From a virus (Duplodnaviria > Heunggongvirae > Uroviricota > Caudoviricetes), in the IMG/VR virus record IMGVR_UViG_2671180846_000009: a stretch of 5,645 nucleotides of DNA, one strand, 5' to 3'. Each line of letters starts with the position of its first letter. Position 1 is the stretch's first letter. The position numbers and the translations under genes are program-made. The notes under the pieces were generated by a model. That model saw only the letters and a program-made list of their open reading frames with translations, did not search any database and was not told the origin of the DNA. Shown here in pieces: positions 3,531-4,345 of the stretch.

Positions 3531-3570
3531 AAAAAAGATCCCGACATAAACATGAGCCGGGATCTTTGAT
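3531..3570. terminator. bidirectional rho-independent terminator between the convergent + operon and the - strand TA cassette
   Basis: AAAAA, then stem AGATCCCG (3536-3543), a 14-nt loop, stem CGGGATCT (3558-3565), then TTTGATTT. An A-tract on one side and a T-tract on the other let it terminate in both directions. Confidence 0.55.
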
Positions 3571-3647
3571 TTATATAGCCTACGAATCCGCCAGTAAGAG
3601 AGGGGGCGGACGGTTAATTCTAACACCGGAATGATGTGGGTAAAAGT

Positions 3648-3947
3648 TTATAAGAAATCGGTTTCATAACTTTGCCCACCATGATAGATACCGACAATAA
3701 AGACTTTTCTGCTATCAACGGCAAAAGCAATAATCGTTCTGTGGCGGAAATGAGTTACCCGCATCCCCTGGCGAATATCATCGCGTTTATTGCCCCGATG
3801 CGGGAATGTAGAAAACCCATCAAGATAATCAAGAAGCGCATTGGCATAATTGTCAGCAATGACGTTCCCTGCTTTCTCCGTTATATACCTGTGCAGGTTG
3901 ATTATTTGTTGTTCGGCCTCAGGAGTAATGATGACTTCATATGTCAT
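3648..3947 (-). CDS. parE: type II toxin, ParE/RelE superfamily (ParE-like)
   Basis: 99-aa ORF. The pattern of N-terminal helices (TPEAEQQI...YI) followed by a beta-sheet core ending in ...FIVGIYHGGQ matches ParE-family toxins. It begins 5 nt after the antitoxin stop, with a GGGAAG RBS inside the antitoxin's 3' end. Confidence 0.8.
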   Translation of the reverse strand: MTYEVIITPEAEQQIINLHRYITEKAGNVIADNYANALLDYLDGFSTFPHRGNKRDDIRQGMRVTHFRHRTIIAFAVDSRKVFIVGIYHGGQSYETDFL

Positions 3948-3952
3948 GCAGA

Positions 3953-4210
3953 TTACTTCCCGGATCGAATCGCGGCGCGAACCTGTGAAATGGAGCGTCC
4001 GTTGTTTGGATTTTCGCGGATAGAATCAAGAGAGGGGGCGGCTGAATGCGTTAACCACGCTTCGATTGCTTTATCGCGCTCATTCAGTGCGCGAAGCCCT
4101 TCACGAATGACCTCGCTTTCTGAAGCATAGGCACCGGAAGCCACACGGGCGCGCACCATGTCAGCCATTTCGTTAGTTAATGTAATGCTGAATTGTTGGG
4201 TTGTACGCAT
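3953..4210 (-). CDS. parD: type II antitoxin, ParD-like ribbon-helix-helix protein
   Basis: 85-aa product from the ATG at 4210 (MRTTQQFSITLTNEMADMVRARVASGAYASESEVIREGLRALNERD...), matching the ParD/RHH antitoxin signature (-SGxYaSaSEVIRegLR-). An RBS (GAGG) lies 6 nt upstream. The track's longer ORF, starting at 4273, has no RBS, so the 4210 start is preferred. Confidence 0.75.
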   Translation of the reverse strand: MRTTQQFSITLTNEMADMVRARVASGAYASESEVIREGLRALNERDKAIEAWLTHSAAPSLDSIRENPNNGRSISQVRAAIRSGK

Positions 4211-4245
4211 GGTAAACCTCACGGAGTAGGATAGAACACCATTCG

Positions 4246-4276
4246 ATGATAGCACGTTGCCTGTTGACGACAACAG
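4246..4276 (-). promoter_or_regulatory. putative sigma70 promoter and operator of the parDE cassette
   Basis: On the minus strand, TTGTCG (-35) is followed 16 nt later by TATCAT (-10), about 35 nt upstream of the antitoxin ATG. The -35 lies inside an inverted repeat CTGTTG-ACGA-CAACAG (4261-4276), a plausible RHH-antitoxin operator. Confidence 0.4.
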
Positions 4277-4345
4277 AAATCAGAGACAATATTGCCGCAC
4301 GCCAGCTTGAACAACTGGCACCTGCTGCGCCAGCAGAGAAAACCG

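Follow-up and report, generated by a model that had tools for sequence, protein, structure and literature searches.

A probable self-transcribed ParD/ParE toxin–antitoxin cassette in an exchangeable slot of a lambdoid prophage from Shiga toxin-producing Escherichia coli

Results and Discussion

A parD–parE gene pair in a lambdoid prophage

The viral DNA analysed here (IMG/VR record IMGVR_UViG_2671180846_000009, Caudoviricetes; 5,645 nt, the whole of which we call the window) carries a pair of toxin–antitoxin (TA) genes, parD and parE, on its minus strand. Both open reading frames (ORFs) are intact and are separated by a gap of 5 nt in a bicistronic, antitoxin-first arrangement (Table 1). An earlier reading of the same letters, made without database searches (the original prediction), had placed both ORFs at these coordinates, and RefSeq agrees, naming the products at the same positions in a 100%-identical record 'ParD family antitoxin' (WP_001260977.1) and 'RelE/ParE family toxin' (WP_000220601.1). 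By Megablast, positions 3400–4450 are 100% identical to the chromosomes of many O26, O103, and related strains of E. coli that produce Shiga toxin (STEC).

The host element is a lambdoid STEC prophage of ~31 kb. Its genes run in the order exonuclease, dicB, repressor region, replication genes, DUF4406, Ead/Ea22, HNH, and parE–parD, followed by a 90-aa ORF, DUF968, RusA, a Q-like gene, tRNAs, lysis genes, terminase, and capsid. The pair lies within the nin-like region and, as had been proposed, is convergent to the plus-strand early/nin-like operon and just upstream of the unit formed by the hypothetical 90-aa ORF and DUF968.

Hidden Markov model (HMM) searches bore out the proposed membership of both proteins. 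The toxin matches ParE_toxin (PF05016; E = 4.5e-10, 40.4 bits against a curated cut-off of 23) over residues 5–94 of 99 and profile positions 1–89 of 89, while the antitoxin exceeds the curated cut-offs of both ParD_antitoxin (PF03693; E = 1.6e-7, 32.1 bits, cut-off 21) and NCBIfam TIGR02606 (53.8 bits, cut-off 46.2). Full-length matches in PHROGs assign the toxin to phrog_5232 ('toxin', E = 2.4e-43) and the antitoxin to phrog_6494 ('antitoxin', E = 1.7e-56), both families being filed under 'moron, auxiliary metabolic gene and host takeover'. The nearest solved sequences are Mesorhizobium ParE (6x0a) for the toxin and Caulobacter ParD1 (3kxe_C) for the antitoxin, which also matches the ParD entries 7ycv, 7b22, and 8c24.

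Table 1. Features of the parDE cassette and its promoter junction, in window positions
Feature	Position	Strand	Description or basis
Whole parDE cassette (moron), ~770 bp	3525..~4295	minus	Homology breakpoints 3524/3525 and 4295/4296
Hairpin terminator (predicted)	3534–3567		10-bp perfect inverted repeat (arms 10–12 bp); A tract before, T tract after
parE toxin gene	3648–3947	minus	99 aa
parD antitoxin gene	3953–4210	minus	85 aa from ATG; N-terminal ribbon-helix-helix domain
Shine–Dalgarno sequence of parD, GTGAGG	4217..4222	minus	Read from the sequence; kept in all aligned relatives
Degenerate copy of the ParD-family operator palindrome TAGGATTnAATCCTA	4227..4241		3 mismatches
parDE promoter (predicted)	4273..4246	minus	Promoter scan; −35 TTGTCG (4273..4268), 16-nt spacer, TG-extended −10 TATCAT (4251..4246)
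Palindrome CTGTTGACGACAACAG, 16 bp	4261–4276		Overlapping −35 hexamers: TTGTCG leftward, TTGACG rightward
Rightward promoter TTGACG-18-AATATT (predicted)	4264..4293	plus	Promoter scan; toward 90-aa ORF, DUF968, RusA, Q-like gene

Both genes are under strong purifying selection. Measured against an O111 variant that is 92% identical, the ratio of nonsynonymous to synonymous substitution rates (dN/dS) is 0.09 (parE) and 0.06 (parD); in comparisons between genera, synonymous change has reached saturation and dN is 0.14–0.30. The pairing of ParD with ParE is retained in Yersinia, Salmonella, and Enterobacter. When a one-genome-per-species collection was scanned with a ParD alignment as seed, 567 matches were confirmed as ParD, indicating a very large ParD family; among the best 80 loci, the ORF downstream of parD matches the ParE HMM at E < 1e-12 in 62 of 71 distant loci. 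A word-indexed protein search had suggested a narrow enterobacterial family of 34 clusters, a picture that we reject in light of the genome scan as a limit of that search's sensitivity.

Promoters, operator, and terminator

A promoter of its own with an inverted-repeat operator had been ascribed to the pair. A promoter-like site and the inverted repeat (4261–4276) are both present, but the repeat is probably not the operator. In the parDE promoter, the TAnnnT frame of the −10 hexamer and the preceding TGC are constant across an alignment of E. coli, Salmonella, Yersinia, and Enterobacter sequences, and the inner bases vary.

The best candidate for a ParD operator is the site at 4227–4241, which resembles a palindrome, TAGGATTnAATCCTA, found upstream of parD in other species. 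This palindrome occurs with at most 2 mismatches in 78 of 79 readable upstream regions of ParD relatives, 44 times perfectly, compared with 0 of 367 control stretches at the same threshold. Its median position is 20 nt upstream of the start codon, and the relatives that carry it belong to Proteobacteria, Acidobacteria, and other groups (loci L103–L182). Many of these relatives have a TTGACx hexamer 17–18 nt upstream of the palindrome, and therefore its left half-site appears to double as a −10 element. A literature search with the operator sequence returned nothing relevant. In the window, the gene-proximal half of the site is perfect (ATCCTA in the sense of parD) and the distal half has diverged, a form common to the whole enteric clade. 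The site lies between the −10 element and the Shine–Dalgarno sequence, where it covers the predicted transcription start.

The palindrome CTGTTGACGACAACAG probably marks the junction of two back-to-back promoters instead of a binding site for ParD. Its plus-strand core, TTGACGACA, is a near-consensus −35 of the rightward promoter and is invariant in 8 enteric copies, although the outer symmetry is not, and CTGTTGACGACAACAG is absent from isrK promoters (discussed below) that have no adjacent parDE. The symmetry is therefore most simply read as a 2-bp overlap of divergent −35 hexamers. We also considered whether CTGTTGACGACAACAG could be a LexA box that renders both the parDE promoter and the rightward unit SOS-responsive. 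The core CTGT-N8-ACAG is exact in the window, in the O111 variant, and in a Salmonella locus (L103); the rightward promoter drives antirepressor modules in relatives, and antirepressor genes of Gifsy-type prophages are controlled by LexA. However, precisely beside antirepressors the core is imperfect (TTGT..ACAC in phage ArgO145, TTAT/GTGT in Yersinia, CTAT in Izhakiella), as it is in Enterobacter, and the centre of the palindrome is GC-rich, which is atypical of LexA boxes. Because this fit is lost in several relatives, including those adjoining antirepressors, and because the two overlapping −35 hexamers account fully for the symmetry, we think LexA control quite improbable and retain the promoter-junction interpretation.

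Downstream of parE, the original prediction of a bidirectional terminator is a fair description of the hairpin at 3534–3567, which lies inside the cassette and outside the left flank. Its predicted folding energy is −18.5 kcal/mol on the minus strand (z = −3.65), where a U run comes next, and −15 kcal/mol on the plus strand (z = −3.16), where the weaker U tract UUUGAUUUAU comes next. The hairpin is thus predicted to be a strong terminator for parDE and a plausible one for the plus-strand operon. A simple terminator scan missed it because its loop exceeds 8 nt. A separate 14-nt direct repeat, AAGAGAGGGGGCGG, occurs downstream of parE (3596–3609) and inside parD (4028–4041). We rejected it as a recombination scar or regulatory repeat; it probably arose by chance, since the O111 variant has a mutated second copy and the flanks show no relation to each other.

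A TA-dedicated exchange slot

The boundaries of the cassette emerge from comparison with prophages that lack it. Left-flank homology with cassette-less prophages ends at 3524, as determined by BLAST against fetched loci, and right-flank homology begins at 4296, 4301, or 4329, giving a unit that nearly equals the span 3531–4290 originally marked. The inducible Stx2a (Shiga toxin 2a) phage ArgO145, which carries the cassette, is common with the window over 3099–4293 and diverges beyond, and distant cassettes are alignable just from within parE to 4271–4306. Of the 5,426 complete E. coli genomes, 328 contain the whole cassette with both genes, every copy being chromosomal, whereas 4,529 match the flanking hypothetical-ORF/DUF968 unit. 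The sole full match in PLSDB, a 1.4-Mb record, is evidently chromosomal sequence and was rejected as a plasmid copy. The cassette therefore has the features of a moron: presence/absence polymorphism, sharp boundaries between otherwise homologous phages, and its own predicted promoter and terminator.

We opened nine loci that have the right flank and no parDE (L002, L003, L004, L008, and L018–L022), and in all nine hokD lies directly upstream of the small ORF and DUF968. The remaining content varies. K-12 prophage Qin carries relB–relE, hokD, and rem beside the homologous hypothetical ORF and ydfU, the layout that the original prediction had described; TUM9812 carries hokD with hicA–hicB, E302 queH with hokD, O157:H7 ATCC 43894 an alpha/beta hydrolase with hokD, and CFIAFB20190172 an ORF6N protein with hokD. 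In the four other loci, hokD is accompanied by unknown ORFs or is the sole annotated gene nearby. The window itself contains no hok/sok. Since every parDE-less locus sampled carries hokD, in some cases together with relBE or hicAB, and hok/sok is missing from the window, the slot is exchangeable and strikingly dedicated to TA genes: hok is its usual occupant, to which relBE or hicAB is sometimes added, and parDE is a substitute. The exchangeable position foreseen for this locus is thus borne out by the variable contents of related prophages, as is the notion that it holds a different TA family in inverted orientation relative to Qin.

The hokD-slot loci have a TACAAT or TATAAT hexamer at a distance from the shared leader equal to that of AATATT in the window. 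Two of them (L002 and L008) contain a strong terminator, CCCGCTTCGGCGGGTTTTGTTTTTT, ahead of a TACAAT −10.

The surroundings of other copies fit a mobile moron. Of 80 near-identical IMG/VR copies, 75 adjoin the 90-aa ORF and/or DUF968, the left neighbour is that of the window in only 28, and 4 (three full cassettes and an orphan parD) adjoin an antirepressor of the ArgO145 type. In Salmonella and Yersinia prophages, the homologous pair is found in other positions, just past Q or near SieB and an antirepressor.

The toxin is predicted to be of the ParE subtype

The family PF05016 and the RefSeq name span both gyrase poisons and RelE-like ribosome-dependent mRNA endonucleases, so the generic label leaves room for the toxin to be of the latter kind. 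Two further observations would fit a RelE-like activity: a near-invariant His/Arg-rich strand, T65-H-F-R-H-R70, together with H89, and the lack of a match to a ParE-specific NCBIfam model. Against this, an AlphaFold (AF2) model built with 16 homologues (mean predicted confidence, pLDDT, 82.7) comprises a short strand, two long N-terminal helices forming the alpha-hairpin typical of ParE (residues 9–26 and 28–46), strands at 61–67, 71–78, and 81–89, and a disordered tail, with no C-terminal catalytic helix of the RelE type. When the model was compared with the PDB using Foldseek, the first 23 matches were all of the ParE type, with template modelling (TM) scores of 0.64–0.73; the ParE-type matches include proteins from Mesorhizobium, PfiT, PrpT, P. 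aeruginosa, O157 ParE2, Vibrio ParE2, M. tuberculosis ParE1/2, and Caulobacter ParE1. Structures of the RNases RelE, YoeB, YafQ, and HigB rank below these with weak matches (E ≥ 0.02, TM mostly 0.33–0.56), in which catalytic residues are not reliably alignable. The partner antitoxin, moreover, is of the ParD type with a ribbon-helix-helix (RHH) domain. On the strength of the Foldseek ranking, we assign the modelled toxin to the ParE subtype and hold a RelE-like mRNA endonuclease to be very unlikely. From the subtype we infer, by analogy, that the toxin would poison DNA gyrase.

Proposed function

Taken together, we consider it likely that this region is a functional, self-transcribed type II ParD/ParE operon, a moron that a lambdoid STEC prophage carries in its nin-like region. 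Prophage addiction through gyrase poisoning is the best-supported interpretation of its role, drawn by analogy with characterised relatives. ParD would dimerise through its RHH domain and, alone or with ParE, bind the operator remnant at 4227–4241 to repress parDE, while its C-terminal half would wrap and neutralise ParE. Upon loss of the prophage or cessation of parDE transcription, labile ParD would decay, and free ParE would poison DNA gyrase and stop growth, such that loss of the prophage is penalised. With a promoter of its own and an orientation convergent to the early operon, parDE can be expected to be expressed while the lysogen is repressed. During lytic growth, antiterminated read-through from the early operon would run antisense across parDE. 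The parDE and rightward promoters probably compete for RNA polymerase, because their −35 elements overlap. A role in stabilisation is favoured by analogy with ParE(SO)/CopA(SO) of the Shewanella prophage CP4So, a ParE-family module that is reported to maintain the excised prophage (PMC8706911).

Several points weigh against this interpretation. The toxin is only ~24% identical to the nearest solved ParE, and no NCBIfam model was matched by it, those specific to ParE included. To our knowledge, gyrase action has not been demonstrated for every ParE-like toxin. The 3 mismatches to the family palindrome mean that binding of ParD at 4227–4241 is not assured. Finally, the integrase gene is split by IS3 in the 100%-identical reference genome (locus L001); with the integrase so disrupted, loss by excision may be rare, which weakens the rationale for addiction in the reference lysogen.

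The interrupted integrase, by making the host prophage look defective in that genome, could also suggest that the cassette is a decaying passenger without function. Such decay is hard to reconcile with ORFs that are intact in hundreds of genomes, dN/dS values below 0.1, regulatory elements conserved across genera, and the presence of the cassette in an inducible phage, and we regard a functionless passenger as scarcely credible.

The original prediction saw the pair as the most likely defence-related cargo of the window. In such a scenario, the module would serve mainly as an anti-phage determinant of abortive infection or superinfection exclusion: transcription in the host would be shut down by an invading phage, ParD would then decay, and the cell would be stopped by ParE before the invader could finish its cycle. 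The near-constant occupation of the slot by TA genes is in keeping with this idea, and an orphan ParD encoded by O157 Stx2a phages would fit a counter-defence factor, a possibility raised and left open in PMC12502783; the orphan is, however, equally explicable as a remnant or a regulator. Neither protein of the pair matches a PADLOC defence model (0 families in PADLOC-DB v2 for ParE and 0 for ParD at E ≤ 0.01), and the PtuB-like PADLOC matches of the neighbouring HNH protein were discarded as generic HNH-domain matches. Literature searches by RefSeq accession returned nothing relevant, and those by keyword yielded no experimental work on the parDE of the window and no report of phage defence mediated by it. 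A defence role is therefore possible but unsupported, and as the main function of the module it seems to us unlikely. Within the addiction model that we prefer, release of ParE may also act during phage attack.

The isrK–C4–antirepressor junction and an orphan ParD

In several relatives, the parD promoter stands back-to-back with the promoter of isrK, again with overlapping −35 hexamers. A TTGACG-18-TATATT/TATAGT promoter lies directly upstream of isrK in ArgO145, in Stx2a phages with an orphan ParD, and in Salmonella, Yersinia, and Izhakiella. There, isrK is followed by a C4 antisense RNA and an antirepressor gene in a unit resembling immI of P1, with all Rfam hits above the gathering score (junction regions: L006 4776–4958; L005 2867–3049; L103 3225–3411; L104 3221–3406; L105 2127–2312). 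The rightward promoter of the window is positionally homologous to the isrK promoters of ArgO145, Salmonella, Yersinia, and Izhakiella. By Rfam, isrK and C4 are absent from the window, where the rightward promoter and a similar first hairpin are retained. A tRNA-like motif, GGTTCGAATCC, beside the cassette in ArgO145-type loci was rejected as a tRNA or attachment site: ARAGORN found nothing, and Rfam assigns the motif to the isrK/C4 RNAs.

A parD gene without its toxin gene is present in Stx2a phage LC727840.1 (L005 2194–2777, parD itself at 2520–2777) and in Stx2a phages of O157:H7, and was found in 37 E. coli genomes. The orphan ParD is 86% identical to the ParD of the window, has an intact promoter, and is under purifying selection (dN/dS 0.16). 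Of parE, only the initial 14 nt survive at this locus; next come a lipoprotein-like ORF of 93 aa and a HigA-like gene. The occurrence of orphan ParD and HigA in phages of enterohaemorrhagic E. coli had already been noted, without explanation (PMC12502783). Orphan ParD could act as an 'anti-addiction' or counter-defence factor against parDE prophages of O26, O103, and O111 strains; if it neutralises the ParE of the window, this would constitute a concrete TA-based conflict between co-resident or competing Stx-type phages.

The fusion of the parDE promoter, through overlapping −35 elements, to that of isrK–C4–antirepressor also raises the possibility that, in the enteric parDE clade, TA transcription and occupancy by labile ParD gate the lysis–lysogeny or late-gene switch, with orphan ParD as a regulator or anti-ParE factor. 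In the window, the back-to-back partner is the unit toward DUF968, RusA, and the Q-like late regulator, not isrK–C4–antirepressor. We regard such gating, and both of these roles for orphan ParD, as speculative and improbable.

Other features of the prophage and sequence quality

Outside the window, the same prophage (L001 1–2323, 7023–7687, and 8253–8947) has, besides its split integrase, a HigB-family toxin with a helix-turn-helix partner and a YdaS/YdaT-like pair, so that several TA-like modules reside in one prophage that is itself probably defective in the reference genome. A 27-aa hydrophobic ORF (3440–3523, plus strand) overlaps the stop codon of a 114-aa gene via ATGA and ends one base short of the left boundary of the cassette. 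Its upstream neighbour in the O111 variant is another gene (DUF551), and the two versions of the ORF are separated by ~5 synonymous and 3 nonsynonymous changes, counted by eye. This pattern points to a genuine small membrane protein encoded at the end of the early operon, for which PHROG and PADLOC gave no match. A 211-aa Ead/Ea22-like ORF (1794–2429, plus strand) has a full-length match to PF13935 in the window, and ArgO145 also has one, while the reference genome annotates its counterpart as an incomplete pseudogene (L001 13395–13907).

The window and the reference genome differ at ~8 positions over 4,638 nt. Two runs of 50 N inside the DUF968 gene (4639–4688 and 4976–5025) are scaffold gaps: in the finished genome, 65 nt stand in place of the first, and the pieces on either side of the second overlap by 47 nt. 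Because the second gap parts overlapping pieces, it introduces a false frameshift and a stop at 5141 in the DUF968 frame, which we dismiss as an artefact. An Rfam match to MIR408 at 4393–4454 is far under the gathering score and spurious.

Significance

TA modules are textbook prophage cargo. The pair is already known, being named in RefSeq, in PHROGs, and in the GenBank record of ArgO145, and it has the sequence-level features of ParDE (profile membership, toxin fold, and paired, antitoxin-first gene order); the original prediction had rightly called the family not novel. ParE-domain toxins are, moreover, the most diverse TA group in E. coli (PMC10790755). As a ParDE module, the cassette thus adds nothing new. 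Its modest value lies in showing cleanly that a slot upstream of the DUF968–RusA–Q block of lambdoid prophages is dedicated to the exchange of TA modules. Of greater interest are side findings: the ParD operator palindrome that spans phyla, and the back-to-back isrK–C4–antirepressor junction with the orphan ParD of Stx2a phages, may each help those working on TA regulation or Stx-phage induction.

Comparison with known systems

The closest characterised counterparts are the ParDE system of Mesorhizobium opportunistum (5CEG, 6X0A) and ParD1–ParE1 of Caulobacter crescentus (3KXE), which provide the best PDB matches in sequence and fold. Like the pair in the window, they combine an RHH ParD with ParE in antitoxin-first order, and TIGR02606 is itself the model for ParD of the Caulobacter CC2985 type. 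They differ in that their toxins are ~24% identical to that of the window and in being chromosomal in alpha-proteobacteria, not phage cargo. The candidate operator of the window is a diverged form of the ParD-family palindrome. The founding member, ParDE of plasmid RK2/RP4, has the same family assignment. In the well-established RK2-type logic (see PMC6191456 and PMC3001019), the antitoxin is labile and of the RHH type, the toxin poisons gyrase, and killing is post-segregational; by analogy, the pair in the window would follow the same logic. RK2 ParDE stabilises a plasmid, whereas the present cassette is chromosomal and prophage-borne.

Among phage-borne systems, PaaR2–PaaA2–ParE2 of a cryptic prophage in E. 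coli O157:H7 likewise has a ParE-fold toxin in an STEC prophage (PMC8630535). Its toxin (5CW7/5CZF) aligns with that of the window at a TM of ~0.70 and ~18% identity over the structural alignment. It is a three-component system with a non-RHH antitoxin and a separate regulator, in contrast to the classical two-gene ParD/ParE of the window. Prophage-encoded toxins of the ParE superfamily are also found in ParE(SO)–CopA(SO) of Shewanella CP4So and PfiAT of Pseudomonas Pf4, modules reported to have a part in maintaining the prophage or producing phage (PMC8706911 and PMC13048266). In fold, PfiT is the second-best match of the toxin; the antitoxins and hosts of these two systems differ from those of the E. 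coli cassette. In position, the nearest counterpart is relBE–hokD of K-12 Qin, directly upstream of the homologous small ORF and the DUF968 gene ydfU; that cluster pairs a type II RelBE with a type I Hok and is oriented like ydfU, opposite to the parDE pair of the window.

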